A DNA stretch of 64,000 nt from Thermoanaerobaculia bacterium. Lineage in GTDB: Bacteria > Acidobacteriota > Thermoanaerobaculia > Multivoradales > Multivoraceae. The position numbers and the translations under genes are program-made. The notes under the pieces were generated by a model that saw only the letters and a list, made by a program, of their open reading frames with translations, made no database searches and had not been told where the DNA came from. Numbering within the stretch: position 1 is the stretch's first letter; each line of letters opens with the position of its first letter. Of the stretch, positions 7,645 to 45,820 are shown one piece after another. The stretch spans positions 2,080,001 through 2,144,000 of the forward strand of contig OY762911.1 of NCBI GenBank assembly GCA_963666565.1. The letters are read 5' to 3'.

Positions 7645-7715
7645 CGCGAAGAGCGCCCGCGGGACCCCTCCCCTCGGCCCCGGACCGGCGGGTCCGACCT
7701 CCGCCGCCCGCGCCG

Positions 7716-15090: not shown

Positions 15091-15101
15091 GACCTTGGGC
15101 G

Positions 15102-27276: not shown

Positions 27277-27360
27277 GCCCGTCAAGTTAGCAGCCCGTTG
27301 CCAAAGCAGTTACTTGCGGGTCTCGTCGCGGAGTAGACTCGGGACCTGAGGACTCGATAG

Positions 27361-28527: not shown

Positions 28528-28604
28528 GTTGCTCCCCGTCCCTCAGTAGGGTCGCCGGCCAACCTCGACTTGGCGAAGCACTGCCTTCTCTTGCCACTCC
28601 CGTG

Positions 28605-29957: not shown

Positions 29958-30159
29958 GGCGTTCCCTGGTTCTGGGGCGTTCCGGCCTCGCCCGGCCCGC
30001 AACGAGGACGGCCGGGCGACTGTTACCGGCAAGACTCTACTCTAGGTCGTTCAGGCTGTGAAGAGGCGCAGTTCAAGGGTCGGAGGGTCGTGGTTGGGCG
30101 GTTTGGCGCCTCAGGCGCGTGGCGGACGAGCAGTTGGTGCGAGGGCGCGGACGGCTCGG

Positions 30160-33100
30160 CTACAACACATCGAGAAACTCGGCCAGAACGTCGGCTGCCC
30201 CTAAGCCTCGCTCGTTCTCCGCGGCCAGTTCGATCGGTCTGAACTCGGGGTTCAGGGGCTCCAGCACGATCCGGACGTGCCGCCAGGGCCCGTCCGTCGC
30301 GGCCCGCTTCTCGCTGCGGTAGCGCTTCACGGTGAAGCGTTCGCCGGTTTCCGGGTCCACCGCGTCCCGCAGGCGGGCCAGGACGATGCGGCCGTTTCGG
30401 GTCCCGCCTACGCCGCTGCGGAACAGGCAGATCGCCCCGTCGGGGATTCGTGGCGCCATCGACCGGCCGACGACCGTGGCGGCGAACATGCCGGGCGCCA
30501 GCGGACGCCCGGAGTCGACTTCGATCCAGCGGGTCTCGGGGTCGGCGGGTTCGCCGAGGGGTCCGTGCGTTTCGCTGAAGTCGCCCGCGGCGGCCTGCAG
30601 ATCCTCCACGAACGGCACGCAGGTCCGGTAGCGAGTCTCCGGCGTCGGCTGGACGAACCGGAGTACGTCTCCCGGCGGCTCGCGGAGGCTCTCGGCTGAA
30701 CTCGGCGTGACGGCGTTCGCGTCGTCCGGGCCGTCCGCAGCGTCCGGGTCTTCGGCACCGTCCCCAGCCGCCGGTGCGCTGGCCGCCGCGAACCAGCGGT
30801 CGTCGTTGACGCGTGTCCGTGCCTCACCAGCGTCCAGGTATCTCGCCAGCTTGCGGAAGTGCTGCGTCATCGCTCCGGCGTCGTCCAGGTCCGTGACCGT
30901 GATCTCCACGACCTCGTAGCCGCGTTGCCGCAGCCAGTAGCGGATCTCGCGGTCCTGCTCGGCGGTTCGGGGGTTGCCGTGCAGGTGCTCGCTCAGGCCG
31001 TCGAGGTAGATGCAGACGTCCGGCGCGTCACTGTCGCCGCCGCCGGCACCGCCGGCACCGCCATCGCCGCGGTAGACGACGTCGGGCGTCGTCGTCTTGA
31101 GGCCGGGTCCGAGGCTTATCTGTTCGCCGCGAACGCCCTCGCCGAAGCCGGCCGCCAGCAGGAGCTGCCGGAGCCTTCGTTCGGCCTCGTTGACCGGCTG
31201 CCCGCTCGCCTCCCGGCCGGCGGGGACGGCGGCGGGAATCGCGTGCGAGAACGACAGGCTCCGGCCCCACGCGCGCAGGCACGCCAGCGCCACGTGACGG
31301 TCGAGGTTCCCGTGGAAGTAGCCGTTGCGGAAGGTCTGCAGACAGTCGATGCAGGAGTGCCCGCAGGCGGAAGCGCAGCCGCCGACGACGGCTTCCGCGG
31401 CCCGCACGACCTCGCCCCAGCGCTCCGCGAGCTGGTCGAGCAGCCCCGAACCGCCCGGCATCGGGTCCCACAGCAGCGCGTCGACCTGCGGGCGGTCGAC
31501 GTGGCCCGCCACCAGAACCTGCAGGTCCTCCAGGTGCATCTCAAGCACCTGCGCGGCGCCGAACCGCAGCGCTTCCAGCACGCTGTACGCGGTCGTCGGA
31601 TCGGGCAGGTCCGGCAGCGAGAAGACGTCGGCCACGATGTCCGCGTGGAAGCCGATGCGGTTCACCGGGCGGCCGCAGCGTTCGCCGTGCTTCTCGGCGA
31701 AGTCCCGCTGCTGCCGCTCGGAGGACAGCGGCGAGACGCTCTGGCCGCAGACGGTGCAGACCGGGTACCCGAGGCCGCCGCCGTCGCCGATCGCGGACGA
31801 CGAGCCGACATTCACCAGCCGCAGTTCGACGCCGTGGCGCAGCAGCGCGTCCGCCCCGCCAGCGTCGGCGGGGCGAGCGCCCGCGCCTGCTCGAACGGCA
31901 CCCCCGCCGGCACCGAGTGGCCCTCGTCCTCCAGGATGTCCCGCCGGGTCTGCCGGATGCCGGCTTCGTCGTCTGCCGCCAGCCTGCCCGCCCGGCCCGC
32001 CCCAGCGGAACGCCCGGCCGCCGCAGTGACCTCCGCGTTCGATGCCATGCACGGCGACCGGCATCTGGAACCGGTAGTCCTCGTCGTCCGAGATCTGGGA
32101 CTGGTGCATGAGATCCACGTCGCACACGGCGAGCGTGCGGAGCGCTCCGGCGCCGAGCAGGGACGCGGGCGCCCCGGGATCGCACTGCCGCACGGCCTGG
32201 TTCTCGACGGAGACCTCGAAGGCCGGCATCTCCTCCCGGTCCTCGCCGGCCGACCGCAGGAAGCGGCGGGCGACGAAGCGGTGCCCGTTGGCATAGATCA
32301 GGTTGCCGGGTACGTACTCCCGCAGCGCCATGCCGGTCGGGCGGGGCAGGTTGAAGGCGAGCGCTCCCGAGTGCCAGAAGGGGACCTCGGCCATCGCCTG
32401 GACGGACCCCGTTTCGAGCCCGTAGCCGGGGAGGAAGCCGTGGGCCGCCAGCACGTTGAAGGTGTTCGCGTCGTCCTGGCCCTGGGCGTCGCGGCGGCTC
32501 GGGCGCGCCTGCCCCTTGAGCCGTTTGACCAGCCGGTCGCAGCGGCGGAACAGGGCGTCGTCTTCCGGGTCGAGCGCGCCGTGCCGGCGGCGGGTCTCGT
32601 GCAGCCTCTCCATCTGCGCTCGCGCCCAGTCCAGCCGGCGGCGCAGGGACCGGGCCGCGTCCTCCAGGCCGAAGACGAACTCGTCGATGCAGCGGCCGAG
32701 CGCGTCGGTGGCGACGGCCGCGGCGTCCGCCTCCGGCCAGCCTTGGCCGAAGGCGGCCTCGGCTTCGGCTAGCAGTGCCCCGCGATGCCGGCGGACGACG
32801 TCAGCGAGCGGCCCGAAGTCGAACGGGGCGGCGCGCACGGAACCTCCATCGAACAGCCAGGACGAGACGCGGCGCGGCAGGCAGCCTTCGAGCGCGGCCC
32901 GGATCCGCTCCCGCTCGGCGGGGTCGTCGCCGTCGTCGGCCTCTTGGCGGGTAAGCCGCTGGAGCCCGGTGAGCACGCATGCGTTGACGTGTTTGCGGAC
33001 CATCACGTCGTTGCTCAGGTTGAAGGCGGGCGGGTCGACCCGGCCGGCGAGCAGCTTCTCGGGCTCCGCGAAGTAGGCGCGGTCGTGCGACACGGGCCGG

Positions 33101-36100
33101 CAGTAGGTGAGATCGACCGCCATCCGGTGCCGCCGGCCGGCGCGGCCCGCGCGCTGCCAGTAGTTGGCCGGCAGCGGCGGCACGTTGCGCATGAGCACGG
33201 CGTCCAGCGAGCCGATGTCGACGCCGAGTTCGAGGGTCGCGGTGCAGACGAAGCAGTTCACCGCGTCGCTCCCGCCCTTGAACAGGTTCTCCAGGCGTTC
33301 CCGTTGCTGGTGGGGGACCATCGCCGTGTGCTCTTCGGGGCGCAGCATGGAGTAGCCGCCGTCCAGGAGCTGCAGGTCGTAGTCGTCCGGGTCTTCGCGC
33401 AGCCACTCGAGCGTGCCGTTGCACCGCCAGGCGGGGCAGCGCTCGTGCGGCGTCCGGCGGACGGTGCGGGCGCGGCAGCTCCGGCAGCGGTAGACGCCGT
33501 GGTGTGGCGACAGTTCGAGGCGGTCGCCGTCGACCTGGCAGACGCCGCTCGCGTTCGGCAGCGGCCGCCCGTGGGCGCCGACGAGCCGGACCGGCCGGAG
33601 CAGTCCGCGCTCCGTGAGCATCCCGAACAGGCTCCGCAGCAGGTCCTCCGTCTGCTCCGGCTCGGCGCCCCACTTGGCCGCCATCTGCTTCATCGTCGTC
33701 TGGCCGCCGTCGCTCAGCCACTGGAGGACCCGGTCCGGCGAGTCGCCAGGGCCGCGCTGCAGCTTGACGCCCCTCGGCCCGCCGAATCGCCGGAGGTACC
33801 CGTGCTGCCTCTCCAGGTCGCCGGCGAGGCGGAACTTGGTGAACGTCAGGTACTCCCCGTCGTGGAGGATCTTCCGTCGGCGCACGTAGTCGAGCGCGGC
33901 GGCGACGCCCTCCCGCATGGACTCCGGCGGCAGCCCGAGCCGGTTCGCCCAGTCCCGGATCCACGGAAGCGAGGCGTCCAGCCCGGCGTAGTCGACCTTC
34001 ATCCGGCCCCACGGCTCGAGACCCAGAGGCTGCCGGGCGGACTCCGCGACCTCCTGCAGCACCTGCATCCGCAGGAACTTCAGGCGCTCGTCGCGGTGGC
34101 GGCGACCGGCCGCCTCCGGGCGGGCCACCACCCACACCTCGGGGATCAGCGCGCGCGAGAGCGCCTCGTTCTTCTCCAGGGCGTCGTCCAGGTACCAGGT
34201 CAGGTCGCCGACCGAGCGGCAGCCGCCGGGGCCGAGCCCGTCCGCCATCAGCGACCGCAGCCGGAACCGGCGCGCGTGGTCCTTCATCCAGCCGGCCTGG
34301 AAGGCGGCGTCCTGGCGGTTGTCGCAGAACACGAGCAGGCGCGGGCGGGCCGAGTGGTGGACCATGTCCTGGGCTAGGACGTGGACGTCGGCGGCGTTGC
34401 TGGCGCGAACCGATCGCGCTGGCTCGCGGTAGCGGCCGCCGCCGGCGCGGTGGCCCGGTGTGCTGCATGAGAGGCAACTCGTCAGGACGCCGGGGCGTTC
34501 GCGGTTCTGCCGCACCGCGTGGAGCCGGACGCGGGGGTCGGGAGCGCCGCAGCCGAGGCAGGCGCCGCCGGCTCGTTCGTGCGCGGCGCCGCAGTGCCGG
34601 CAGAGGTGGACGGGCGCGGTGCGGCGCTCGAGGACGCTTGGGGCTTCGCCGGTCCCGGCGCCGCGGCCGGGTGCCGGGCCGCCGCCGTTGGTGCTCCCGT
34701 CGCGGCGGCCGGATCCCGTGCCGTGCCCCTTCTCGTCTTCGCCGTCCTCCTCGTCGCCGCCGATGAGCCGGTCGACCAGAACCGCCCTCCTGCCCCCGAG
34801 CGCCTCGTCCAGCGGGGGCCAGAAGACGCCGCGGTCGCTCGGTTCGCCGCCGCCGGGGCGGCGTCCGTCGAAGGAGAAGTCCTGGAGATGGGCCTCGAAG
34901 TAGTGCTGCCCGCAGGTCGTGCAGGTCAGAACCGGCAGACGGGCCGTTTGCAGCGCTTCGTCTTCGGGAACCTGGGCTGCGCTCTCGCGCGCCGCACGCG
35001 AACCGCTCCGAACGCCCATCGGCCGCCCGGACGCCATGCGCTCATCCTGCCCGCTTCCGGTCTTCCCGGTCGCTTCGGCACTGGCGGTGCCGGCGGCCTC
35101 GCCATGCTCGATCTCGTCTTCCGCCGCCAGCCACAGCCGCGGTTCGCCGGTCTCGTCCGGGAACGAAACGACCGCGCCGGGGATTCCGCGCACGAAGCCG
35201 TGGACCACGGGCCGCAGCAGGGGCCGCCCCTTGCTGCGGGCCGCCGCGGCCAGGGTCAACCAGGCCAGGATCTCGGCCTCCGCGATCTCCCGGCCGATGG
35301 CTTCCCGGAGTTCCGCCGGCAGTTCGTGCAGCGGCCGCGGCCGGTGAAGCGCCTCGTTCAGCCGGTAGACGATCTCGCTCCGTGCCAGGGCTTCGTACAG
35401 CGCCTCGGGCCACGCGCCGGCGGCGAGCTCGTCGCCTGCGAGCGCCCGGTACGCGGCCCGAACCGCGTCGCCGGGTCCATCCGGGTCGTCCTCGACCGCC
35501 TCGACGCAGGCGGCGAGAAGGCCGGCCGCGTCTTCCGGCCCAGTGGCTGCCTCTTCAGGCCCGGCGCCGCGGCCGCCGCTCGCGGACGGAGCGCCAGCCG
35601 CCGCGGCGGCGCCCATCTCTTGGGCTGCCGCGTCATGCCGCCGCCGCGCCTCGCTCCAGACCTCCGGCTCGTAGTCCTCGCCGACCGTCTCCACCGACTC
35701 CTCCGGCACGCCGAAGAACCGCGATGCGAACGCGCGGGCCGCGCCGGGCCGCTCGGGGTCGACGATCGTCGCCGAGGTGGCGACGCAGACCGTGTCCGCG
35801 GCCCGGCGGCCGCAGAACGCGCGCAGCCGGCGAACGAGGCACGCCGTCTCGGCGCCCATCGCGCCGGTGAACGTGTGCGCCTCGTCGAACACGAGAAAGT
35901 CGAGCCGGGCGCCGTGGAACAGCTCGGCGTCCCGCTGCCGGGTGAGCAGCAGTTCCAGTTGCTTCACGTTCGTCAGCAGGATGCGCGGCTGCCCGCCGGG
36001 GGAGCGCATCGCTTCGCGCGAGCATGCTTCCTCCGGCGGAAACACGGACTCGCCGCTCTTCGCGGCCTGCACCTCGGCGAGCCTCGCCTCGTAGTCGGCC

Positions 36101-36690
36101 CGCGACGCGCCCCGCGGCAGGCGGATGCCGGCGACGCCGCTCTCGTTCTCCGGCGTCTTGCCGACGTACATCCCGAACGAGACGCCCGTGCCCGCCAGCA
36201 GCGAGCGCAGCCGCATCAACTGGTCCTCGGCCAGCGCGTTCATCGGGTAGACGATCACCGCGCTGATGCCGGACGGCGCGCCCTCGTCCCGCAGCTTCAG
36301 GCAGCGGCTGACGACGGGGTAGAGGAAGCACTCCGTCTTGCCCGAGCCGGTACCGGTCGAGACCAGCGTCGAGCACCCCGCGGCGATGGCGCGGATGGCC
36401 TGCTCCTGGTGCCGGTAGAGCGCCTCGATGTCCTCTGGAATCCGCTGCTCCAGGTGCGGATGCAGCAGCCCCTCGGCCGCCAGGTCCGCCACCGGCGAGC
36501 CCGTCCGAAACGGCCGCGAGAGACTGACGAACGGCCCCCGCAGCAACGGCGACCGCCGCGCCTCGTCGAGCGAGAGGAGTTCCCGCATCTGCCCGTTCAA
36601 CCGCGGATCCGCGAACGGATAGGCCCGCAACTGGTAACGGAGGAAGCTCTGGAGGACCTTCTCCGTGAAGACGACGGGGTTCAGCGCCAT
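30160..36690 (-). CDS. giant DEAD/DEAH helicase with DUF1998, Vsr/DUF559-like nuclease and C-terminal S24 peptidase domains
   Basis: TGTGSGKT, YPMNALAEDQ, DEAH, TSAT, ATLELGVDIG, QRAGRAGR; DPMPGGSG...C-x3-C-x3-CxxC; PD..IYLDG..H; AAG/GRSM/TVKR; start MALNPVVF. Confidence 0.9.
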   Translation of the reverse strand: MALNPVVFTEKVLQSFLRYQLRAYPFADPRLNGQMRELLSLDEARRSPLLRGPFVSLSRPFRTGSPVADLAAEGLLHPHLEQRIPEDIEALYRHQEQAIRAIAAGCSTLVSTGTGSGKTECFLYPVVSRCLKLRDEGAPSGISAVIVYPMNALAEDQLMRLRSLLAGTGVSFGMYVGKTPENESGVAGIRLPRGASRADYEARLAEVQAAKSGESVFPPEEACSREAMRSPGGQPRILLTNVKQLELLLTRQRDAELFHGARLDFLVFDEAHTFTGAMGAETACLVRRLRAFCGRRAADTVCVATSATIVDPERPGAARAFASRFFGVPEESVETVGEDYEPEVWSEARRRHDAAAQEMGAAAAAGAPSASGGRGAGPEEAATGPEDAAGLLAACVEAVEDDPDGPGDAVRAAYRALAGDELAAGAWPEALYEALARSEIVYRLNEALHRPRPLHELPAELREAIGREIAEAEILAWLTLAAAARSKGRPLLRPVVHGFVRGIPGAVVSFPDETGEPRLWLAAEDEIEHGEAAGTASAEATGKTGSGQDERMASGRPMGVRSGSRAARESAAQVPEDEALQTARLPVLTCTTCGQHYFEAHLQDFSFDGRRPGGGEPSDRGVFWPPLDEALGGRRAVLVDRLIGGDEEDGEDEKGHGTGSGRRDGSTNGGGPAPGRGAGTGEAPSVLERRTAPVHLCRHCGAAHERAGGACLGCGAPDPRVRLHAVRQNRERPGVLTSCLSCSTPGHRAGGGRYREPARSVRASNAADVHVLAQDMVHHSARPRLLVFCDNRQDAAFQAGWMKDHARRFRLRSLMADGLGPGGCRSVGDLTWYLDDALEKNEALSRALIPEVWVVARPEAAGRRHRDERLKFLRMQVLQEVAESARQPLGLEPWGRMKVDYAGLDASLPWIRDWANRLGLPPESMREGVAAALDYVRRRKILHDGEYLTFTKFRLAGDLERQHGYLRRFGGPRGVKLQRGPGDSPDRVLQWLSDGGQTTMKQMAAKWGAEPEQTEDLLRSLFGMLTERGLLRPVRLVGAHGRPLPNASGVCQVDGDRLELSPHHGVYRCRSCRARTVRRTPHERCPAWRCNGTLEWLREDPDDYDLQLLDGGYSMLRPEEHTAMVPHQQRERLENLFKGGSDAVNCFVCTATLELGVDIGSLDAVLMRNVPPLPANYWQRAGRAGRRHRMAVDLTYCRPVSHDRAYFAEPEKLLAGRVDPPAFNLSNDVMVRKHVNACVLTGLQRLTRQEADDGDDPAERERIRAALEGCLPRRVSSWLFDGGSVRAAPFDFGPLADVVRRHRGALLAEAEAAFGQGWPEADAAAVATDALGRCIDEFVFGLEDAARSLRRRLDWARAQMERLHETRRRHGALDPEDDALFRRCDRLVKRLKGQARPSRRDAQGQDDANTFNVLAAHGFLPGYGLETGSVQAMAEVPFWHSGALAFNLPRPTGMALREYVPGNLIYANGHRFVARRFLRSAGEDREEMPAFEVSVENQAVRQCDPGAPASLLGAGALRTLAVCDVDLMHQSQISDDEDYRFQMPVAVHGIERGGHCGGRAFRWGGPGGQAGGRRRSRHPADPAGHPGGRGPLGAGGGAVRAGAGARPADAGGADALLRHGVELRLVNVGSSSAIGDGGGLGYPVCTVCGQSVSPLSSERQQRDFAEKHGERCGRPVNRIGFHADIVADVFSLPDLPDPTTAYSVLEALRFGAAQVLEMHLEDLQVLVAGHVDRPQVDALLWDPMPGGSGLLDQLAERWGEVVRAAEAVVGGCASACGHSCIDCLQTFRNGYFHGNLDRHVALACLRAWGRSLSFSHAIPAAVPAGREASGQPVNEAERRLRQLLLAAGFGEGVRGEQISLGPGLKTTTPDVVYRGDGGAGGAGGGDSDAPDVCIYLDGLSEHLHGNPRTAEQDREIRYWLRQRGYEVVEITVTDLDDAGAMTQHFRKLARYLDAGEARTRVNDDRWFAAASAPAAGDGAEDPDAADGPDDANAVTPSSAESLREPPGDVLRFVQPTPETRYRTCVPFVEDLQAAAGDFSETHGPLGEPADPETRWIEVDSGRPLAPGMFAATVVGRSMAPRIPDGAICLFRSGVGGTRNGRIVLARLRDAVDPETGERFTVKRYRSEKRAATDGPWRHVRIVLEPLNPEFRPIELAAENERGLGAADVLAEFLDVL

Positions 36691-36825
36691 GAAGTCGGCA
36701 AGGCTACCGCCTTGGGTCTCGTCGTTTCGCCGACGTCGAGCGTCCCGGGTCGGATTGACTGGTGCCTGCCGTGGTACGTCCCTGGCGGCCATATGCTCGG
36801 AGACCGGCCACGCCAGAGGAGTGCC

Positions 36826-37068
36826 ATGAACAAGGAACCGGACTACAGAGGGGTCGCCAAGGTGTTCTGGAGCGGAGGCAGCCAGGCGGTGAGGCTTCCG
36901 GCGGCGTGCCGGTTCGAGACCTCCGAGGTGGACGTCATCAAGGAGGGAGACCGGCTCACGCTGCTTCCGCGCGGGAAGAACTGGGGCGCGTACTTCGATT
37001 CCAAGTCCCGCGGGAGCCTTCCGGCGCGCAGCCAGTCGCCACTTGAGGAGCGGGACCGTCTCCGCTGA
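36826..37068 (+). CDS. AbrB/VapB (VagC-like) antitoxin, no toxin downstream
   Basis: AKVFWSGGSQAVRLPAACRF...V.V.KEGDRLTLLP; AGGAG upstream. Confidence 0.88.
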   Translation: MNKEPDYRGVAKVFWSGGSQAVRLPAACRFETSEVDVIKEGDRLTLLPRGKNWGAYFDSKSRGSLPARSQSPLEERDRLR

Positions 37069-37080
37069 TTCCGTTCTCGG

Positions 37081-37578
37081 TCAGGTACGTGACGGCGTCA
37101 GCCGTCGTGAGCAACGGCGGCGGTGGAGGAAGTCGTTTCGACGCGCCGGCGCCTCCTTGGCCGGGAACGCGCTACGCCGGTGGCCGGGGATCTCCGGCAG
37201 GAACCGGAGGTCCTCGAAGTCGGTCTTGAGATTCTCGTCGTGAGCGACGATCACGAGTGCGTCCGACGCTGCCGCCAGCGCGAGCATGGGCTTGTCCTTC
37301 TCTCCGGAACGCGTCTCCACGTCGCGCAGGCGATCCTCTTCGCGCCGGACGAGTTGGTCTTCGATCAGAAGCGCAAGGCCGTTCTGGCTGTAGCGCCGAA
37401 AGAGAGCGGAGACGTCGGAGTCCCGCTCGAGCTCCCGACCGGCGCGACCGTAGGTCGAGAATGCGACGCGCCCGTGGCCATCGCCGATCCAGCGTCGAAG
37501 CTGTTGGCCCGCCGATTCGGGAGACGCCTGCTTGAACACATCGAACGCACTCGCGTCGAACACCACCCGAGTACACAT
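37081..37578 (-). CDS. PIN-like domain protein
   Basis: N-terminal VVFDAS, then E, KDKPMLALA..SDA.VIVAHDENL - an acidic pattern typical of PIN folds. Confidence 0.65.
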   Translation of the reverse strand: MCTRVVFDASAFDVFKQASPESAGQQLRRWIGDGHGRVAFSTYGRAGRELERDSDVSALFRRYSQNGLALLIEDQLVRREEDRLRDVETRSGEKDKPMLALAAASDALVIVAHDENLKTDFEDLRFLPEIPGHRRSAFPAKEAPARRNDFLHRRRCSRRLTPSRT

Positions 37579-37587
37579 GGACGGCGC

Positions 37588-38886
37588 CTACCGGCGAAAA
37601 CCGAGGAGCCGCTCGGTTTCGTCGAGGAAGAAGTGCCGGAATCCTGGCGGCGCGTCGCCCAGGTTCGCCTGCCTGTCGACCCGGATGCCGTGCAACTCGG
37701 TGGACATCCGGTCGTCGGCTCTCTCGAAGTAGACGATTCCGAGATCGTCCGGGTCAACTTCCCCCGACATGACGGCGATGCGAAACCAGTCGGGGACGTG
37801 ATCGCTGTGCGACTCGACCAGAACCCGGCCTCCGCGTGAGGCGATCGACCGAACCAATGCCGCTTGAGCTCGCGGATGCAGGTGGGCTTCCGGCTGCTGC
37901 AGGAGGATTGTTGCCTCCTCCGGCGCCGAGGCGATCGCTTGGAGCAACGGCAGCGCACTCTGGATGCCGAAGCCGACATGGACCAGGTTGTAGGGTTCAC
38001 CCGAAGCGTTGGCCCAGACTTCGTAGTGACCCAACGCTCCCCGCCGCACCTCCAGGTCGCTGAAGATCCCCAACTTCCTGCCCAGTTCGCGGATCTCCTC
38101 CAGCGTGTGTGCGTCTACGTTCCGACCGAACGGGTTCGACCCATAGGCGGGCCTGCGTTCCCATCCGTCCGGGTCGTTGTTCGCGATGACCAACGCGCGT
38201 TCGGGGGTACGCAAAGGAACGTTCCGGCGAAAGAAGTTGACGAATCCGGCAAACATTCTGTCCGATTCCGGCGTCGGGTCGCCCGTCTGCTTTCGCCGGA
38301 GCGTGAGATTTCCGTCATATGGCAGATGGCCTCGCATCACGGACCGTGACAGCCAGGTGCTGGGCTGCGCATAGGAAACGGACGACTGCGCGAAGTCGAA
38401 CTCGAAGCCCGGTCCGACGACGCGCCAGGTTTCGTCGTCTTCGGAGGAGGATCGGTCGACGCGAATGACCTTGAAAGCTGGCCCGTCTTCGCCGTCCGTC
38501 GCGAAACGGAGCTCCAGCTCGCGCTCTCGTGGTTCGCCGTTGGCGCCCCTGTCGTACGTGACGCGGATCCGGTCGTAGTGGTGGTCCCGCAACGTGGCTT
38601 CGAGAGAAAACGTCGCCGACCCGGAGCGGGCCATGGCCGCGAAGGAGTCCATCCAGAACGGAGGCCGGGCGAAGTGGTTCTCGTCGTCCAAGTCGTCCCA
38701 GGTGGAGCGTTCCCGATCCCACTTCTGCAGGTTCGCCACATGCGCAAGCCCCTGCAGGCATCCGAGAAAGGTCGACTTGCCCGCGCTGTTTTCGCCCACG
38801 AGCACCGTGATGCGGGGCAGTTCAGCCTGATGGGTGCCCGCGAAGCAGCGGACGTCGGTCAGAGAGAGCTGGGTCAGTGCGCTCAT
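37588..38886 (-). CDS. ABC-type ATPase with DUF3696-like C-terminus
   Basis: VRCF, GENSAGKST, VGFGIQSALP, LLQQPEAHLHP, VESHSDH, C-terminal PPGF..FF; ATG 38886 overlaps the upstream stop. Confidence 0.85.
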   Translation of the reverse strand: MSALTQLSLTDVRCFAGTHQAELPRITVLVGENSAGKSTFLGCLQGLAHVANLQKWDRERSTWDDLDDENHFARPPFWMDSFAAMARSGSATFSLEATLRDHHYDRIRVTYDRGANGEPRERELELRFATDGEDGPAFKVIRVDRSSSEDDETWRVVGPGFEFDFAQSSVSYAQPSTWLSRSVMRGHLPYDGNLTLRRKQTGDPTPESDRMFAGFVNFFRRNVPLRTPERALVIANNDPDGWERRPAYGSNPFGRNVDAHTLEEIRELGRKLGIFSDLEVRRGALGHYEVWANASGEPYNLVHVGFGIQSALPLLQAIASAPEEATILLQQPEAHLHPRAQAALVRSIASRGGRVLVESHSDHVPDWFRIAVMSGEVDPDDLGIVYFERADDRMSTELHGIRVDRQANLGDAPPGFRHFFLDETERLLGFRR

Positions 38887-40361
38887 GGTCCGGAAGGTCC
38901 CGTGAGTCTTCGCAGGAACCGTTGCAGCCGTATCACGAGCCCGGGAGCGCCGGAGGCCGGCGCTTCCGCCCCAGGCTGGGCCTGTTCGTCCAGGAACGGG
39001 TACACCGCCCGGTCCCCCAGTGCCGTTCGGGCCTCTACTTCGCACCGTTCGCGGCACCGCTCGTCCGCGACGCCGAGCGTCCCCGGCACGTAGCTGTAGT
39101 GGAGCTTGCCCGCGTCCTGCGGCCACCAGTCGTCGCCGACCACCATGCGCAGCATCTCCAGGGTCATCAGGCTGGCGAGGTTGGCGCTGAACGGGAACAC
39201 GTTCTGGTTCGTCGGCTTGCCGCCAGCCATCCTGGCGAGGTAGGCGGGGTCGTCCAGGGAGCCGTCCCGCTCGAGCACGACGTCCGACGTCGTGTACTGT
39301 CCGTCGCAGCGCAGGCAACGGCGTTCCGGCCCCGAGCGGACCACGCTCCAGGTCGCCTGGCCGAGCGTGCCGTCCTTCTTCGTGTCGACGAAGACCCCTC
39401 CGAAGACGACGGGAATACAGTGGGCGTAGGCGATGTGGTTCATCAGGTCCTTCGGCAGGGGGCGGTCGACGCAGGAGAACAGGATGTCGCAGTCGAGCGC
39501 GGCGGAGAAACAGTCGCGCTGCTGCAGCCAGCCGGCGTGGGCGTCCACCCGGAACCCGGCGGCCGTCGCCGAGCGGCGCAACCCGTCGGCGGCGAGTTCC
39601 ACCTTGAGCCGACCCACGTCGTTCTCGCCAGCGTACAGGAGGCGGTCGAGGTTGTGCGCCTCCACTCGGTCGGCATCCACGAGGACGACGCGCTCGACGC
39701 CGATGCGCGCCAGCGTCTCCGCCACCAGGCAGCCCACGCTGCCCAGTCCCACGACGCCGACTCGCAGGCGCGCCAGGTCGGCCTGGCGGGCGGCGCCCCA
39801 GGTGTCGATGGTCCGCCTCAGGGCGCGGCGCCGCTCCGGCGGGGGCGCCAGTTCGTCGTTGCAGGTGAGCCTCATGCGACGACCGACAACGCGCACCTTT
39901 CGGCACCACGTTCGCTCGAATCCGCTGGCGGTCCGATCCCAGAAACGCGCGCTCCAGGCCTCGTCCGTGCCGAGGGTGAGCCCCACGAGGGGCAGGTGGG
40001 TCGCTCGCGCCGGCGCGGCGATGCGGTCGCGTTCGGCGCTCACGTCCTCCCGGCTCATTCCCTGCCAGCCGGGGCTGGGGTGGCTGTGGAGGAAGGCCAG
40101 CCCCGCCTCTTTCTCGCAGGCCAGGCGCACGGCGCGCGACAGGTAGTCGGCTTCGAAGCTCGCGCCGCCGTGGAGCGCTCGTTCTCCTTTCCGCGGGAGG
40201 ATCAACTCCGAGACCAGCGCCGTCGTCCGGCTCGCGCCCCGGCTGGGATTCCAGAGCGCGAAGCAGAGGTCCTCCTGCCTCCTCCCCGCGCGCAAGTGGG
40301 CCAGCAGGTGCTTGCAGGCGGCTTCGTGAACCGGTTCGGCGAGCGCGGCTTCGAAGTTCAC
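38883..40361 (-). CDS. JAB peptidase - E1/ThiF adenylyltransferase fusion
   Basis: JAB E...HSHP...S..D; ThiF GLGSVG, DADRVEAHNLDR, SCVD, Zn-binding CLRC and CRERC; GTG start overlaps the E2 stop. Confidence 0.88.
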   Translation of the reverse strand: MNFEAALAEPVHEAACKHLLAHLRAGRRQEDLCFALWNPSRGASRTTALVSELILPRKGERALHGGASFEADYLSRAVRLACEKEAGLAFLHSHPSPGWQGMSREDVSAERDRIAAPARATHLPLVGLTLGTDEAWSARFWDRTASGFERTWCRKVRVVGRRMRLTCNDELAPPPERRRALRRTIDTWGAARQADLARLRVGVVGLGSVGCLVAETLARIGVERVVLVDADRVEAHNLDRLLYAGENDVGRLKVELAADGLRRSATAAGFRVDAHAGWLQQRDCFSAALDCDILFSCVDRPLPKDLMNHIAYAHCIPVVFGGVFVDTKKDGTLGQATWSVVRSGPERRCLRCDGQYTTSDVVLERDGSLDDPAYLARMAGGKPTNQNVFPFSANLASLMTLEMLRMVVGDDWWPQDAGKLHYSYVPGTLGVADERCRERCEVEARTALGDRAVYPFLDEQAQPGAEAPASGAPGLVIRLQRFLRRLTGPSGP

Positions 40362-40732
40362 AGTTGCTCCAGAACGCGCAGGAGGTGGCGCCTGACGTAG
40401 GTTCGCATGTTCTTCTGGGACGGCTCCAGCGTGTCCCAGAAGTCGCTTGGAGGGAAGCTGAACGCCCACCACCGGGCGCCTTCGAACTCGTGCTCCGAGT
40501 GCTTCGTAAAATGCGTGCCTTCCAGGTTGCGAAAGTGAATGAAGTGCGGCGGATACTCCGGGTAGGCATCTTCCTGGAAGCTCAGCCCGATAAGAAGCGT
40601 CCGTCCCTTGAAACGACCGTTCTCGACGTGGAAGGGAAAGATGACTCCCGCTTCCCCGGCGCCGTTCCAGGACTCGACGACGCGGGCTTCGAATCCGAGT
40701 TCCCTCAGTTCGCGGGCGACCTCTTCAAGCAC
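40358..40732 (-). CDS. prokaryotic E2/UBC-like protein (no cysteine)
   Basis: 124 aa with YPEYPPHFIH and WWAFSF, located between the Ubl and E1 genes. Confidence 0.72.
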   Translation of the reverse strand: MLEEVARELRELGFEARVVESWNGAGEAGVIFPFHVENGRFKGRTLLIGLSFQEDAYPEYPPHFIHFRNLEGTHFTKHSEHEFEGARWWAFSFPPSDFWDTLEPSQKNMRTYVRRHLLRVLEQL

Positions 40733-40736
40733 GGGC

Positions 40737-41195
40737 TCAGGCGACAGGCGTTCGTCCGGCGTGAAGCGCCACGAACTGGTCGCCGTCCGCGATCGGCACT
40801 TCGTCGCCGAGGTTCTCGTACCGGGCTCCGGTGCGGACGTTGTCCAGGTAGTAGCTCTCCAGCTCGCTCGTGTCGATCGCGGCCTCCGAACCGGCCCGCC
40901 GCAGGATCTCCTCCAGCGTCAACGGCGTCTTCGCCGTCACCTGGCGCTCGCCGTTCACGGTGTACCGGATCCGCGTCCCCACGGGATCCGGCGGCGCCTG
41001 CCCTGGCCTGGCCCCGAACGCGTCGCCGTCCCGCAGGTCGACCTCGGCGGCCGGGTCGGTCCACTTCTCTCCGGTTTCCACGCGCACGAGCACGGCGCCC
41101 GTCGAGTCGATGCCCGCCTGCTCCAGGAGCCACGCGACCGTGACCGGACTCCGCGGAGACGTGAACCTGCGGTCGTTGATCGTGAAGCGGTACAT
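40737..41195 (-). CDS. multi-ubiquitin domain protein (two beta-grasp repeats)
   Basis: Repeats FTINDR...TVAWLL..AG...VDLRDGDAF and YTVNGE...TLEEIL..AG...VPIADGDQF; ends G-RTPVA; GAGG upstream of ATG 41195. Confidence 0.8.
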   Translation of the reverse strand: MYRFTINDRRFTSPRSPVTVAWLLEQAGIDSTGAVLVRVETGEKWTDPAAEVDLRDGDAFGARPGQAPPDPVGTRIRYTVNGERQVTAKTPLTLEEILRRAGSEAAIDTSELESYYLDNVRTGARYENLGDEVPIADGDQFVALHAGRTPVA

Positions 41196-41394
41196 GCTGG
41201 CTGTCGCCTCGATTCTGGCGGCCTGTACTTCGTCGGCCGTGAGTGGCCCGTTGGGCTGACGCGACTCTTCTTCGACTGGCCGTCGTTCTGCGGCGAGACT
41301 ATACCGGCCGTGAGGCCGGGGGCCGGACATCTCAGGCCTTCCGCCGCGGGCGGGAGCCGACTGGCGCCGTGGGCTTGCGCTGTAGATTCCGGCC

Positions 41395-41919
41395 ATGCCG
41401 TCCGAGCGCAAGATCCTCGTCATCGCCGGGCCGAACGGGGCCGGGAAGACCACCTTCGCCAGGGAGTACCTGCCGTTCGAGCCGGCGTGTCCGATCTTCG
41501 TCAACGCCGACCTGATCGCGGCGGGCGTCTCGCCGTTGAACCCGGAAGCGGCGGCGTTCCGGGCTGGCCGCCTGATGCTGGAGGAGATCGACCGCCACGC
41601 GAGGCAAGGCAGGAGCTTCGCCTTCGAGACGACCCTGGCCGGGCTCGGCTACGTGCGGAGGATCCGGCGCTGGCGGAGATCGGGCTACGTCGTCAAGCTG
41701 ATCTACCTGCCCCTCGCGACGCCCGAGGAAGCGCTCAGCCGCGTGGAGCAGCGAGTGAAGCAGGGCGGCCATCGGATTCCTGAAGATCTCGTCCGGCGGC
41801 GCTTCGACAGGAGCGTGGCGAACTTCCGGAAGGTCTACCGCGATCTCGTAGACTTCTGGGTAGTCGTTGACCGGCGAGGTCGCAGATTGGTCGTTGTCGG
41901 GGAGGGAGCAAACCAGTGA
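41395..41919 (+). CDS. zeta-toxin-like P-loop protein
   Basis: IAGPNGAGKTT, VNADLIA, FAFETTL, RV..RV.QGGH.IPE. Confidence 0.88.
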   Translation: MPSERKILVIAGPNGAGKTTFAREYLPFEPACPIFVNADLIAAGVSPLNPEAAAFRAGRLMLEEIDRHARQGRSFAFETTLAGLGYVRRIRRWRRSGYVVKLIYLPLATPEEALSRVEQRVKQGGHRIPEDLVRRRFDRSVANFRKVYRDLVDFWVVVDRRGRRLVVVGEGANQ

Positions 41920-42119
41920 GCGCGGAGAAAGAACAGCGTCCCGTGCTGAAGCTCGACGATCCCGACATCCAGGCGGTGCCTGCGGCGCTGGAACGCGCGG
42001 TCCGCCGCGCACACAGGGATGCGCACCGGCACGGCACCGGCGTTCTCGTGGTCGAGGACGGCAAGATGGTGGAGGTTCCCCCCGATCCGGCGCTGTACGA
42101 AGACGACAGGGCTCCGTAG
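41916..42119 (+). CDS. small partner protein of the zeta-like ATPase
   Basis: GTGA overlap; ALERAVRRA...VLVVEDGKMVEVPP. Confidence 0.75.
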   Translation: MSAEKEQRPVLKLDDPDIQAVPAALERAVRRAHRDAHRHGTGVLVVEDGKMVEVPPDPALYEDDRAP

Positions 42120-42430: not shown

Positions 42431-43612
42431 ATGGCGCAGTTCACGGTCGCGGAATGGAAGTGCATCGAGGACGAACTGACGGCGAACCCCGGGAGGTACG
42501 GGTTTCCAGACAGGGTCTACGGCTCCGTCCTTCTGGGGTCGTTCAACGTCAGGAAGCTCGGGGCGGCGAAAGGCCGGAACAAGCGGACCTGGGAGTTCCT
42601 GGCCCGCATCTGCAAGCAGTTCGACCTCATCGCGATCCAGGAGGTGATGGACGATCTCGGCGGGATGCGCCGGTTGATGGAACTCTTGGGCCCGGACTTC
42701 GAGATGATCGTGTCGGACAAGACGGGCACCTTTCCCGGAGAGCCGGGTCTCGGAGAGCGGCTGGCCTTCGTCTACAACCGGCGTGTCGTCGTTCGCACCG
42801 AGGTTGCGACGGACATCACCTTCGACCGTTCAAAGATCCTCTCGACCCTGATCGCCAACCGCGACGACGTGCACGAGGCGCTCGACCCCATGGTCGCGTA
42901 CGAGAAGAAGCTCGCGTCTTGGCAGCGACACCGGCGGGGAAGACGGCCGCGGCGGCCGAAACTCAAGCTGCCGACCTTTCTGGCGTTCATCCGCGCTCCG
43001 TTCTGCGTGAGCTTCGAGGTTCCCGGACATCCGGGAACCGAGCCGTACCGGTTCATGGGCGTGAACGCTCACCTGTACTTCGGCAACTACATCGACGACC
43101 GGCGCCAGGAGTTCGACGCGCTGATGGACTGGATCGTGAGCCGCGTCGACGAGAACGACGCGACGTACTACCCGAACTTCTTCCTGTTCGGCGACCTGAA
43201 CCTGGACTACGACAACCCGGCCAAGGACCGCGACCGAGTGGAGCGACACCTGAAGCGCTTCGACGGGGAGAGCGCCGAAGGAGTGCGGGTCAACTTCCCG
43301 TTCCTCGACCCGCATCCCGGCCGCGAAACCGTGTTCCGAACGAACGCGCGCATGACCGAGACGTTCGATCAGATCGGCCTGTTCTTCCGGGACCAGAGGT
43401 TCCCGCCGTGCGACGTGAACGAAGACATGGGCAGCCGCCCGGAGGGACCGGACTACGGCGTCTTCGACTTCGTCGACCTCTTCGCGCAGGCCGTCTTGAA
43501 GAAGCCGTTCGCCGATCTGCAGAAGCAGGAGAAGACGGACCTCGTGAAGAGGTTCGAGCACAAGGTGAGCGATCACCTGCCGATTTGGATCCGGCTGCCA
43601 CTCCCGCGCTAG
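42431..43612 (+). CDS. endonuclease/exonuclease/phosphatase (DNase I-like) protein
   Basis: SFNV, DLIAIQEV, NAHL, GDLN, FDQI, SDHLPI; AGGAGG RBS. Confidence 0.9.
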   Translation: MAQFTVAEWKCIEDELTANPGRYGFPDRVYGSVLLGSFNVRKLGAAKGRNKRTWEFLARICKQFDLIAIQEVMDDLGGMRRLMELLGPDFEMIVSDKTGTFPGEPGLGERLAFVYNRRVVVRTEVATDITFDRSKILSTLIANRDDVHEALDPMVAYEKKLASWQRHRRGRRPRRPKLKLPTFLAFIRAPFCVSFEVPGHPGTEPYRFMGVNAHLYFGNYIDDRRQEFDALMDWIVSRVDENDATYYPNFFLFGDLNLDYDNPAKDRDRVERHLKRFDGESAEGVRVNFPFLDPHPGRETVFRTNARMTETFDQIGLFFRDQRFPPCDVNEDMGSRPEGPDYGVFDFVDLFAQAVLKKPFADLQKQEKTDLVKRFEHKVSDHLPIWIRLPLPR

Positions 43613-43721: not shown

Positions 43722-45818
43722 CTAACTGAATTGAGGGAGCCCAGCGTCGGCATTGGCCAGAGCGACGTCTTCAAACAGCCGTCGCCACGGTTCCCGAGCG
43801 GGCTCCGCCTGTCTGCTGTAGGGAACGTCCAGGTCCGGGTAGACCGCGCTCAATCGACCTCCCCAAAGTCCCTCGTTCTGTCGGGCTTCCTGCCGAAGCT
43901 TGGCGCGATCCCCGGGGGCAGCGAACGGGTAACCGAGCCACTTGTTCCAATGCCGATGTTGGGGGAACTCGGACCGCACTCGCGAGAACTCTTCCCGGTC
44001 GGGTCCGTGGCCGTTGATGCTTCTCGACAGCGCCAACAGCCGCGCGCTGTACGATGCCGGTCGTACGCTGAGCCACGAGTCCAGGCTCTCGTCTCGTTGC
44101 GGCGATGCGCCCGTCCGGCAGGCCACTACGAGCTCGAGCTCAGAGGTCGGCGGCGCCTGCGCGGCCCGGTCGCGAAGAACCGAGGCTTCGCTGGGCGGTG
44201 AGAAGTAGCGCTCCATGAGTTCCGTGCGGTTCCTCAGCGACGCGAGAACAGAACGGACTTGCGGCCCCATCTCCGGCTCAATCGCACGGTGTTGGAAGCC
44301 CACCGTGCGGAAGAACTGCTCGTCGTCGATGACCTTTCGAATCCGGTTCGCCAAGGGATCGTCGGTGTGGCGCATCGCCCTCTTCGATACCGCACTGCTC
44401 CACCGTTTCGTTCCCAGTAGGCGCGGCTCGATCACGTCGTTGGGGAAGTCCCGCGAAGTCTCTTTGAGCAAGTTCTCCGCCAATGTCAGCCGTTCTCTGT
44501 TTGCGAGCGCGACGATCAGCGCCGTTCTAGGCACCAGATTGTCGGGGAACCGCCGTACTGTCTCCCATCTGACATCGAGGGAAGTCTCGACGGCGCCCAC
44601 GGCCGCCAGGACCTTAGCCCAGAGGTCCCAGACGTACGAGTTACTGTTCTCGGCCTGCAGCGACTGAAGCGTCCAGTTGAGGATTTCCGTCAACTGCGCG
44701 CCGGACGGACTCTTGCGGAGCAGTCGGTCGCACAGATTGTGGGTGGTACGAACCGCGTAGTAGCTGTGGTGCGCGTAGCGGGCGTAGTTCCAGTGCCGGG
44801 TGAGCAGGGCACGCGCCTTGCGCCAGAGGCCATCGTCCAGGGCTTCGGCCGCATCCACCGCAAGAACCACCTCATCGAGCTCTGCTTTCCGTGGCAAGTA
44901 TGCGGATCGTCGCGCGGCCCGCGGCCGGTTCCCACGAGCAGGTACGTTGCGGCCAAGCCCGGTCTCGGGGACACACTGGCGTGGAAGGGCCAAGCGGAGC
45001 CAGTCGTTGTGCGCCACTGACCGGTGGCGCCCGAATCCGTGGAGGCTGCCCAATGCGCTCGCCCAGGTTTGCTTCCAGTGACTGTGATGCCGGGGATACA
45101 GGACAGTCAAAGTCGAGACGTGGCGCCGGAACTCGGCTCGCAGTTCGGAGGAATCCGTGCCGCGCTGCGACGACAAAGCGGCGAACCTCGCCAACGCCGT
45201 AGCGACCAGTCGCTCGGGCTGTACCTTGGTCGGGTCCGGGATCTTGCGGAGCCCGAGCAGCCCGATCTCGAGGCCGTCTTGCCAGTACGGGCCGGCCCAG
45301 GCCGCCTCCTCGCAAGAGGCGAACCACCTCGCCGCCAGCCGCTCGTCACGCTGGTGCTGCGCCAGGGCGAGGTCGAACTGCCGAAGGAGGTCGATGTCGT
45401 CGGGCCAGCGCAGGCTTCGAAACCGGTTGTCCCAAATGGCCACGTCGTCGATCAGGCGCGCCGGGGACGACGACAAGGGCAGGCGTGCGACCACGGCCAA
45501 CGCGTCGGAGAATTCGGCCACGTACGCTCGCGTACCGAAACGAGCGATTCGATCCGGTGGCCAGGTGCTGCGCTCTTCCAGCCACTCGATCAGCGCACCG
45601 TCGATGGTCTCCACCAGCGCATCGCGGCGAGAGCGCAACGCCTGCTGTGCTAGGAGGTCGGCAAGAAAGTCGGCCGGCTCGGCTAGCTGAAACGCGCCGC
45701 GCGCACCCCTGCCTTCCAGCAGGCTCGAGATGGCTGTGCCGGGATCGGACGACAGTGCTTCGGCCCAGGCCGCGAAGGTGCCGTCCGGACGGCGAGTCGA
45801 GTTTTCTTTGGCGACCAT
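43722..45818 (-). CDS. hypothetical ~700-aa helical/TPR-like protein
   Basis: Long ORF starting MVAKEN, 2 bp after the upstream gene; TPR-like NSYVWDLWAKVL...RRFPDN segment. Confidence 0.7.
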   Translation of the reverse strand: MVAKENSTRRPDGTFAAWAEALSSDPGTAISSLLEGRGARGAFQLAEPADFLADLLAQQALRSRRDALVETIDGALIEWLEERSTWPPDRIARFGTRAYVAEFSDALAVVARLPLSSSPARLIDDVAIWDNRFRSLRWPDDIDLLRQFDLALAQHQRDERLAARWFASCEEAAWAGPYWQDGLEIGLLGLRKIPDPTKVQPERLVATALARFAALSSQRGTDSSELRAEFRRHVSTLTVLYPRHHSHWKQTWASALGSLHGFGRHRSVAHNDWLRLALPRQCVPETGLGRNVPARGNRPRAARRSAYLPRKAELDEVVLAVDAAEALDDGLWRKARALLTRHWNYARYAHHSYYAVRTTHNLCDRLLRKSPSGAQLTEILNWTLQSLQAENSNSYVWDLWAKVLAAVGAVETSLDVRWETVRRFPDNLVPRTALIVALANRERLTLAENLLKETSRDFPNDVIEPRLLGTKRWSSAVSKRAMRHTDDPLANRIRKVIDDEQFFRTVGFQHRAIEPEMGPQVRSVLASLRNRTELMERYFSPPSEASVLRDRAAQAPPTSELELVVACRTGASPQRDESLDSWLSVRPASYSARLLALSRSINGHGPDREEFSRVRSEFPQHRHWNKWLGYPFAAPGDRAKLRQEARQNEGLWGGRLSAVYPDLDVPYSRQAEPAREPWRRLFEDVALANADAGLPQFS

Positions 45819-45820
45819 CG

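Follow-up and report, generated by a model that had tools for sequence, protein, structure and literature searches.

We analysed a 64,000-nt stretch of DNA (the window) from a Thermoanaerobaculia bacterium (assembly GCA_963666565.1, contig OY762911.1, positions 2,080,001–2,144,000 of the forward strand) and found in it a cassette of five minus-strand genes which, from 41195 down to 37081, encode a ubiquitin-like protein (Ubl), an E2-like protein, a JAB peptidase fused to an E1 adenylation domain (JAB-E1), an ABC ATPase and a PIN-like protein. The cassette is a new combination built from two known kinds of module, a Bub-type conjugation pathway and an NsnB-like ATPase with a PIN protein. The explanation we favour, with moderate confidence, is that the five genes are inherited together as a single operon with translational coupling, which arose by fusion of two modules and most likely encodes an anti-phage system in which conjugation of the Ubl controls an ATPase-gated nuclease. 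Such a system would most likely be mobile and of the abortive-infection type.

The genes, as defined by open reading frame (ORF) calls and translations, are the following, with lengths in amino acids (aa):

40737..41195, minus strand: Ubl of two tandem ubiquitin-like (Multi_ubiq-like) repeats, 152 aa (translation, weak Pfam match, hhalign)
40358..40732, minus strand: BubB-like E2 with a YPEYPPHF motif, 124 aa (AlphaFold2 model, structural match, alignment)
38883..40361, minus strand: fusion of a JAB/JAMM peptidase with an E1 adenylation domain, similar to BubCD, 492 aa (ThiF 6.1e-33, profile match to BubCD)
37588..38886, minus strand: NsnB-like ABC ATPase, 432 aa (AAA_21 1.5e-17, AAA_15 7.4e-12, PADLOC NsnB 1.2e-38)
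37081..37578, minus strand: PIN-fold protein, a single domain with a basic C-terminal tail, 165 aa (AlphaFold2 model, Foldseek, VIA)

The five genes form one operon that recurs in other genomes

Direct reading of the bases at each junction revealed a TGA stop, 4 nt and a GTG start between the Ubl and E2 genes, a GTGA overlap between E2 and JAB-E1, an ATGA overlap between JAB-E1 and the ATPase, and a TAG stop, 9 nt and an ATG start between the ATPase and PIN genes. An earlier note on this DNA had described five coupled minus-strand genes at these coordinates, with which both the ORF calls and the base-by-base junctions agree, and its domain calls were borne out as well (ThiF at 6e-33, AAA_21 at 1.5e-17, AAA_15, and a PIN fold from the model). 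The host genome is a single contig, 97% complete, and the window has a GC content of 66–71%, owing to which it holds many shadow ORFs. The five cassette ORFs are taken to be real genes and not chance ORFs because their order and spacing recur in other genomes.

A search with the PIN family yielded 39 proteins, 27 of which were aligned, and scanning one genome per species with this alignment returned 10 loci, from Thermoanaerobaculia (including Candidatus (Ca.) Multivorans, Acidobacteriota) and from Ca. Palauibacter/Gemmatimonadota. All five genes were present in the same order at each of these 10 loci. The junction gaps were 4, -4, -4 and 8 or 9 nt in all 10 related loci, and -4, -4, -1 and 13 nt in a distant copy. 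Altogether 13 intact copies were identified, from Acidobacteriota, Gemmatimonadota and a metagenome, with identities falling as low as 32–36% for the PIN protein and the ATPase. The five genes are kept at locus L079 (identical to L080) at 41% identity for the Ubl, 43% for the E2, 55% for JAB-E1, 36% for the ATPase and 32% for the PIN protein, and at loci L225 and L226, from two Gemmatimonadota genomes, at 44–45, 56, 62–63, 43–44 and 37–41%, respectively. The only ORF clusters common to all 11 close copies are these five. One cassette, at L010, has a frameshifted PIN gene. The earlier note had considered that such ATPase and PIN pairs might never accompany Ubl-E2-E1 genes elsewhere and might instead track the neighbouring helicase; they were found with those genes at 10 of 10 loci and at L079, L225 and L226, and they do not follow the helicase.

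All five genes are under purifying selection: the ratio of non-synonymous to synonymous substitution rates (dN/dS) was 0.08–0.41 in 34 of 35 gene-pair comparisons (seven pairs), the exception being 0.81 at a dS of 0.10. Pairwise identities of the five genes were strongly correlated over the 78 pairs of 13 copies (Spearman 0.85–0.94), and correlations between the two halves of the cassette were as high as those within them. As judged from the sequences, this shows co-inheritance without swapping and not a set of independent events, the copies being kin. Decayed copies lose both halves: only a 3′ remnant of JAB-E1 is left at L081–83, where the PIN gene is frameshifted, and L224 has a split ATPase with neither Bub genes nor a PIN gene.

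The ATPase tree comprised 172 sequences, namely 12 cassette copies, three remnant loci, 112 database relatives and 45 stand-alone ATPases. A clade with a support of 0.86 spans the 12 cassette copies and includes the three remnants and all 112 database relatives, whose context is unknown, and it excludes 45 of 45 stand-alone ATPases. L225 and L226, which lay outside the initial set of this tree, place full cassettes in the 39–45% identity tier of the database relatives. The 14 cassette copies in the JAB-E1 tree are monophyletic (support 0.76) and nested among three-gene operons. The simplest history would be that a Bub-like operon without BubE captured an ATPase and PIN pair once and then spread to other phyla; the cassette copies are monophyletic in both the ATPase and JAB-E1 trees. 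The distribution is sporadic, patchy and mobile, with the cassette present in three of 401 sampled Acidobacteriota genomes, all of one genus (3 of its 10 genomes), and in four of 401 sampled Gemmatimonadota genomes, which also have one split remnant.

The conjugation genes

For JAB-E1, a profile of 13 family members matched Citrobacter BubCD (PDB 9ea4) with an E value of 2.5e-31, collinear over residues 7–408 versus 10–401. This match spans the peptidase and adenylation domains, and the next matches, TcdA and MoeB, cover only the E1 part at ~1e-19. Residues Glu30, His92, His94, Ser103 and Asp106 of the JAB domain are invariant, and Glu30 and Asp106 align with E28 and D104 of BubCD (chain index +2), the residues mutated by Ye et al. 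(bioRxiv 10.1101/2024.11.21.623953). Invariant in the E1 domain are GxGxxG at 205–210, R240, D299 and Y374. Four cysteines (349, 352, 436 and 440) are also invariant in the JAB-E1 family and missing from BubCD at the aligned columns, and the E1 crossover region (353–400) has no cysteine. Tyr374 lies five columns off the catalytic Y370 of BubCD in the hidden Markov model alignment, where the loop aligns poorly, and the pairing of Tyr374 with Y370 is no more than suggestive. Tyr356, in the same region, is conserved almost throughout.

The E2-like protein had no sequence match in Pfam, NCBIfam, PADLOC or the PDB. Its AlphaFold2 model has a predicted local distance difference test (pLDDT) score of 89.1, and the structure that it resembles most is Citrobacter BubB (9eae_C; Z 7.9, root-mean-square deviation (rmsd) 3.2, 113 of 124 residues aligned), followed by eukaryotic E2s, Atg10 and the Cap2 E2 domain at Z 6–7. 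Foldseek alone was ambiguous (best E 3.5e-2), and BubB ranked first only in the VIA comparison. A Z below 8 is modest, while the ranking of the model's structural neighbours is coherent. The protein has no cysteine and none is conserved in the 11 sequences aligned, whereas His78-Ser79 and Ser92 are invariant in the family alignment. Ye et al. (bioRxiv 10.1101/2024.11.21.623953) describe Bub E2 chemistry as serine-based, with which the invariant Ser79 and Ser92, as candidate nucleophiles, would fit.

The Ubl gave nothing usable in sequence searches of Pfam, NCBIfam, PADLOC and the PDB; the Pfam Multi_ubiq match is weak (E 1.2e-3, below the cut-off) and was seen in six of 11 family members. Comparison of its two halves with hhalign shows them to be homologous (96.4%, E 1.2e-9, 61 columns). 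The C-terminus, AG-x-TPVA, is invariant across 14 cassette copies, and the nearest glycine is five residues upstream of the end. At L079 five extra residues follow TPVA, and the Ubls of three sister operons end in TPVS, TPVA plus four residues and TPVS plus five residues, that is, in TPV[AS] with 0–5 further residues. Because a conserved motif is followed by a variable extension, the sequences suggest that the mature Ubl ends in alanine or serine and not in glycine.

The ATPase and PIN genes

PADLOC ranked NsnB (1.2e-38) well ahead of PDC-M55A (1e-20), AriA (8e-18) and PtuA (6e-7) for the ATPase. The best stretch of the NsnB model covers profile positions 207–335 of 345, and Pfam DUF3696 was not reported at E ≤ 0.01. 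One description in the earlier note therefore needs revision, as the ATPase had been likened to the PARIS/Septu/Lamassu type, when the closest is Menshen NsnB. The note had also called it DUF3696-like, and NsnB is an ABC ATPase that carries DUF3696 at its C-terminal end. The PADLOC check proposed at that time gave the NsnB match for the ATPase and no model for the PIN protein or E2. The ATPase has an intact Walker A motif (GENSAGKST), LLQQPE in the Walker B region and a GxG signature. The homologs of this ATPase number 362. A scan of viral contigs with the ATPase alignment returned 68 loci, whose ATPases have 20–47% identity over partial stretches only.

No Pfam, PADLOC or NCBIfam match was obtained for the PIN protein, and PADLOC also had no model for 15 relatives. 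Its fold was assigned from an AlphaFold2 model (pLDDT 86.5), for which the top Foldseek matches are almost all PIN/VapC/HARP (best E 1.7e-3, probability 1.00), and the entries listed in the VIA comparison are almost all PIN-domain proteins, the best being VapC21 (5sv2; Z 8.8, rmsd 3.0, 119 residues aligned). Asp8, Asp95, Asp114 and Asp120 are kept in 11 of 11 cassette and in 47–49 of 49 stand-alone homologs. With its catalytic aspartates retained, the protein is predicted to be a catalytically intact PIN nuclease. Two cysteines, Cys2 just after the start methionine (codon 37573–37575, minus strand) and Cys156 in the basic tail (codon 37111–37113, minus strand), were also observed in 11 of 11 cassette and 46–48 of 49 stand-alone homologs.

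A proposed function and the evidence for and against it

According to Ye et al. and Chambers et al. 2026, Bub pathways conjugate their Ubl via oxyester intermediates biochemically, and their targets and biological role are unknown. The cassette would provide such a pathway with an effector. The JAB domain would trim the Ubl where an extension exists, and the E1 domain would adenylate the Ubl C-terminus, from which the Ubl would pass via tyrosine (E1) and serine (E2) oxyesters to a target; both steps are modelled on the Bub biochemistry of Ye et al. An oligomer of the ATPase may bind the PIN protein and hold it in check, by analogy with the predicted NsnB-NsnC assembly, PARIS and Septu. In the least certain step, conjugation of the Ubl may license or trigger release or activation of the PIN RNase, for which the priming by Cap2 in type II CBASS is a parallel. 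Candidate targets are the ATPase/PIN complex itself and a phage protein that the E2 recognises; as the cassette has no BubE deconjugase, turning the switch back may be difficult. We propose only tentatively that a Ubl ending in TPVA, attached to the ATPase-PIN complex or to a phage protein which that complex reads, is the on-switch of the nuclease and an irreversible commitment to RNA cleavage. If true, a functional output could for the first time be assigned to a Bub-type pathway, and a whole conjugation cascade would have replaced, in nature, the sensor subunit NsnA of a Menshen-like system. A Bub-type cascade that is hard-wired by overlapping codons to a sensor/effector pair also offers a testable output, namely whether tagging controls the nuclease.

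Several observations weigh against our favoured explanation. Conserved synteny is partly a matter of inheritance, the cassette copies being relatives, and the tree supports are moderate (0.76–0.86). Glu49, the second catalytic acid of the PIN protein, is Gln in six of 11 cassette PINs and Glu in 48 of 49 stand-alone ones, and the C-x-S-x-D-x-H motif of the stand-alone proteins is altered in the cassette; because of these two changes, the alignments indicate that full nuclease activity of the cassette PIN cannot be taken for granted. In the ATPase, QQ replaces the DE usual in Walker B, so that ATP hydrolysis may be weak. NsnB itself shows comparable departures, with a non-canonical Walker B and a GxG signature (Li et al., NAR 2025, PMC12065111). 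No protection against phage has been demonstrated for Bub operons (discussion of Ye et al.; Chambers et al. 2026). Finally, each half of the cassette exists on its own.

For the ATPase half, scanning metagenomes with the ATPase alignment left 80 loci. All 75 loci outside the L079–L083 group were without a Ubl, E2 or JAB-E1 match, and the ORF directly downstream of the ATPase belonged to the PIN family in 61 of 77 cases (56 of 72 outside that group). Among upstream ORFs of at least 200 aa beside these pairs, 19 of 29 match unrelated, mostly metabolic families (GH5 cellulase, DHDPS, IlvD, RtcB and others), 10 of 29 have no match and none of the 29 matches DUF262. The ABC ATPase and PIN genes are therefore an autonomous, widespread two-gene module, which counts against one indivisible system. 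Stand-alone pairs (L084–L158, for example L096:1055-2838 and L146:8001-9744) have PIN proteins of ~145–165 aa and unrelated neighbours. Their PINs keep Asp8/Glu49/Asp95/Asp114/Asp120 and the C-x-S-x-D-x-H motif, and PADLOC has no model for them. This module, an ABC ATPase with a predicted active PIN, is a by-product of our analysis and may be an undescribed two-gene defence or toxin module.

For the conjugation half, Ubl-E2-JAB/E1 operons were found at L200–L204 in Acidobacteriota (JAB-E1 identities of 38–46%) without an ATPase or PIN gene within ~7 kb; the JAB-E1 neighbours there are a single-domain Ubl and/or an E2. These are the nearest JAB-E1 relatives in that phylum. Of the five BubE-less trios (for example L203:4242-7078 and L204:6693-9798), two have a divergent helix-turn-helix (HTH)-Peptidase_M78 (CapH/CapP-like) regulator, and the same two have a ~320-aa gene without a Pfam family downstream, in the slot held by the ATPase and PIN genes in the cassette. 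A looser arrangement was observed at L209 (G148:C1:52000-71500), where a distant JAB-E1 (~30% identity) lies 7 kb from an ATPase and PIN pair of the stand-alone type on the same strand (units at 6566-8194 and 15058-16905). The two units are separated by a DDE transposase, a helicase-PRTase and a DprA/SLOG-like gene, and the locus may be a second, looser juxtaposition or an island coincidence.

Because both halves are autonomous elsewhere, an operon fusion of independent defence systems stays a live alternative. Under it, two defence modules share a transcript through co-selection or co-transfer in islands, or through shared regulation, with no crosstalk between them. The separate existence of each half (the stand-alone ATPase and PIN pairs and the trios at L200–L204), the location of the cassette among other defence genes with variable flanks, and the transposase-containing, apparently island-like L209 locus all fit this explanation. 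Against it, the stop-start overlap between JAB-E1 and the ATPase is kept in all copies, even at 36–44% ATPase identity; the modules have not been swapped, as seen in the between-half correlations of 0.85–0.94 and in cassette monophyly in both trees; BubE is lost and there is no regulator of the cassette's own, unlike the sister operons with HTH-M78; the PINs carry clade-specific changes; and decaying copies lose both halves together. The possibility raised in the earlier note that each half works independently of the other is thus supported by their separate occurrence, but the cassette is conserved as a single unit. On balance we regard two independent modules as doubtful, and retain a single, functionally linked operon as our preferred explanation.

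The order of events could also be reversed, with the ATPase and PIN proteins sensing infection, or guarding the pathway and firing when a phage blocks it, and the Bub trio executing the response by tagging phage proteins. ABC ATPases of this class sense in PARIS, and a sensor/transducer role has been proposed for that of Menshen (Li et al. 2025); Bil conjugates its Ubl to phage structural proteins (Ye et al.); and a stand-alone ATPase and PIN pair must sense something by itself. A PIN nuclease, however, is typically an effector and not the output of a sensor, and the Bub genes come first, in the place of the proposed Menshen sensor NsnA. We consider this order unlikely relative to one in which the Ubl pathway acts upstream of the nuclease.

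Genomic surroundings

The flanks of the cassette vary between loci and include type I restriction-modification (RM) genes, transposases, a STAND NTPase, S_4TM, an AAA_21 and DUF4276 pair, or metabolic genes. The context supports a role in defence, the nearby genes being of defence or mobile kinds (a DruE-like helicase, a PARIS-like pair, type I RM, transposases, a STAND NTPase and S_4TM). A function outside immunity, such as a stress-response or RNA-turnover switch, or an addiction module in which a PIN toxin restrained by the ATPase stabilises a mobile element, would be consistent with the patchy, mobile distribution and with PIN proteins being classic toxins of toxin-antitoxin pairs (the structural neighbours of the cassette PIN are VapC toxins). 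In addition, the Bub authors saw no phage protection and consider stress roles possible (Ye et al.; Chambers et al. 2026). We nonetheless judge this to be quite improbable, as most of the neighbouring genes have a recognised role in defence, purifying selection acts on each of the five genes across phyla, and other ATPase-nuclease pairs of this class are established defence systems (Li et al., PMC12065111). An anti-phage role thus remains the explanation we favour.

No HTH-M78 or WYL regulator was found beside any of the 10 cassettes examined, in line with the earlier note, which had seen no HTH/metallopeptidase or WYL regulator adjacent to the cassette in the window. That note had also reported a divergent upstream gene, which was confirmed and is a Zeta_toxin/AAA_33-like P-loop protein at 41395-41919(+). 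The interval between it and the Ubl gene is one further feature of the locus:

41196..41394, no strand: intergenic region between the Ubl gene and the divergent upstream gene, presumed by position only to hold the promoter

A promoter and terminator scan of 36500-41700 found no promoter-like (sigma-70-like) site and one terminator-like site, inside the PIN gene, which is fewer than in shuffled sequences.

Beyond the cassette on its divergent side, a 67-aa ORF (41916-42119) overlaps the stop of the Zeta-like gene and is followed by a gene for an endonuclease/exonuclease/phosphatase-family protein at 42431-43612(+) and, beyond the divergent genes, by a 763-aa ORF without a family match at 43722-46013(-). 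Zeta-like copies or remnants also lie near the cassette at L001, L006 and L009. At L010, an AAA_21 ATPase and DUF4276 pair (MADS3/4- or Menshen-effector-like; L010:3999-5904) is directly upstream of the cassette.

Between the PIN and helicase genes of the window there is an 80-aa MazE/AbrB-type antitoxin-like ORF at 36826-37068(+) (PF04014, E 7.2e-6, above the cut-off), which the earlier note had overlooked. It has a Shine-Dalgarno-like AGAGGAG upstream, converges on the PIN gene and diverges from the helicase, and is followed by no toxin gene on its strand. It was rejected as a conserved partner of the cassette, being absent from 25 of 25 other loci checked.

The DruE-like helicase itself (30160-36792(-), 2210 aa; PADLOC DruE3 1.3e-107) has MrfA Zn-binding and C-terminal LexA-like Peptidase_S24 domains. 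It was considered as a core member of the system and rejected, as it adjoins six of the 11 close copies and lies on either side of the cassette. Among Acidobacteriota copies it is beside the cassette in six of seven, on either side and always co-directional, and it was not found at L002, L003, L005, L007, L010, L079, L225 or L226. A PARIS-like pair at 27685-30032(-), 7 kb from the cassette within the window, consists of an AriA/PtuA-like ABC ATPase (28605-30032) and then a DUF4435 protein (27685-28527). This pair is a local insertion, because in related loci a sulfatase gene, found in the window at 24619-27285, directly follows the helicase.

Comparison with known systems

No published description of the five-gene combination was found in the papers searched, which did not extend to subscription titles or to the final published form of Ye et al. 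The earlier note, too, had known of no described system with this combination. The preprint of Ye et al. makes no mention of an ATPase, PIN, nuclease or effector, and Gong et al. likewise do not have the combination. The Menshen paper (Li et al., PMC12065111) does not mention ubiquitin, ThiF or JAB, and Iyer et al. 2006 mention PIN only for Ubl-Mut7-C fusions.

The ATPase half most resembles Menshen, based on its PADLOC match to NsnB (1.2e-38) and the shared non-canonical Walker B and GxG signature. A PIN-fold gene directly follows the ATPase, as NsnC follows NsnB, and the Bub trio sits where the proposed sensor NsnA sits. The PIN-like domain of NsnC is predicted to dock on the NsnB C-termini (Li et al., PMC12065111). 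In contrast to Menshen, neither the five genes nor the ORFs flanking 10 cassettes encode an NsnA (ParB-DUF262, ParBDB), and the cassette PIN is a single domain with catalytic aspartates, whereas NsnC is an inactive PIN with a C-terminal nuclease. Identity with Menshen was rejected on these grounds, the absence of NsnA and a single-domain PIN that keeps its catalytic aspartates.

PARIS (AriA-AriB) and Septu (PtuA-PtuB) also pair an AAA_15/AAA_21-class ABC ATPase with a small nuclease, which the ATPase restrains or releases (summarised in Li et al., PMC12065111), and by analogy the cassette ATPase probably does the same. The nuclease of the cassette is a PIN and not Toprim/DUF4435 or HNH, its ATPase scores far more weakly against AriA (8e-18) and PtuA (6e-7) than against NsnB, and the descriptions of those systems covered here include no ubiquitin-like module. 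Membership of PARIS, Septu or Lamassu was rejected, given ATPase scores far below that of NsnB and a PIN in place of the cognate DUF4435 Toprim, HNH or Lamassu effector. With VapC-like PIN nucleases the cassette protein shares, in its model and alignment, the predicted PIN fold and the conserved acidic residues.

A conceptual likeness exists to Type II CBASS, in which conjugation machinery lies in the operon of an immune effector and regulates it; its Cap2 E1-E2 fusion and Cap3 JAB peptidase prime the immune enzyme by conjugation (discussion of Ye et al.). The Cap2 E2 domain is also a structural neighbour of the cassette E2 (Z 6.5). However, Type II CBASS has no separate Ubl, the CD-NTase itself being conjugated, and uses thioester chemistry and cyclic-nucleotide signalling, whereas the cassette has a dedicated Ubl and no nucleotide cyclase.

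The earlier note had called the conjugation genes Bil/Bub-type, of which the Bub part was upheld, as the E2 matches BubB and JAB-E1 matches BubCD, and the Bil part was not. Assignment to Bil (BilABCD) was rejected because the E2 has no cysteine and a single adenylation domain is fused to the JAB domain. The closest described pathway is Type I Bub, formerly 6E.1/DUF6527. JAB-E1 aligns collinearly with BubCD, and both the catalytic Glu/Asp of its JAB domain and the adenylation motifs are present; the E2 is free of cysteine, has a UBC-type fold in its model and has BubB as its best structural match; and the Ubl is multi-domain. Separate Ubl and E2 genes also occur in some catalogued operons (Ye et al. 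Table S1). At the sequence level, the cassette E2 and Ubl have no detectable similarity to the solved BubA or BubB. Unlike Type I Bub, the cassette has a Ubl ending in TPVA, whereas the Bub Ubl consists of beta-grasp domain(s) with a C-terminal glycine exposed by JAB cleavage, and a four-cysteine site in E1 that BubCD lacks at the aligned columns. The ATPase and PIN genes follow in its operon, and no CapW, CapH+CapP or CapK/S regulator adjoins the 10 cassettes examined.

A further difference is that the cassette has no BubE/DUF6527. The components that define Type I Bub in Ye et al. are BubAB, BubCD and BubE, and according to these authors no Bub operon is without bubE (bioRxiv 10.1101/2024.11.21.623953). 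PF20137 (BubE/DUF6527) had no match in the whole 97%-complete genome, with a control genome positive, and is absent from four of five genomes that carry the nearest three-gene relatives. The sole match among those five (G015) adjoins a different JAB-E1, of 26% identity, and its locus resembles a canonical Bub operon. Table S1 of Ye et al. catalogues only DUF6527-containing operons (bioRxiv 10.1101/2024.11.21.623953), and because it was built on these, a BubE-less branch would be missing from it; none of the rows in the whole file names Acidobacteria or Gemmatimonadota, and there is no column for an ATPase or a PIN protein. Taken together, the alignments and gene content place the conjugation half in a sister branch of Type I Bub that has no BubE and differs at the end of its Ubl. 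The cassette defines this branch outside the DUF6527-anchored catalogue, with a Ubl that appears to end in alanine or serine.

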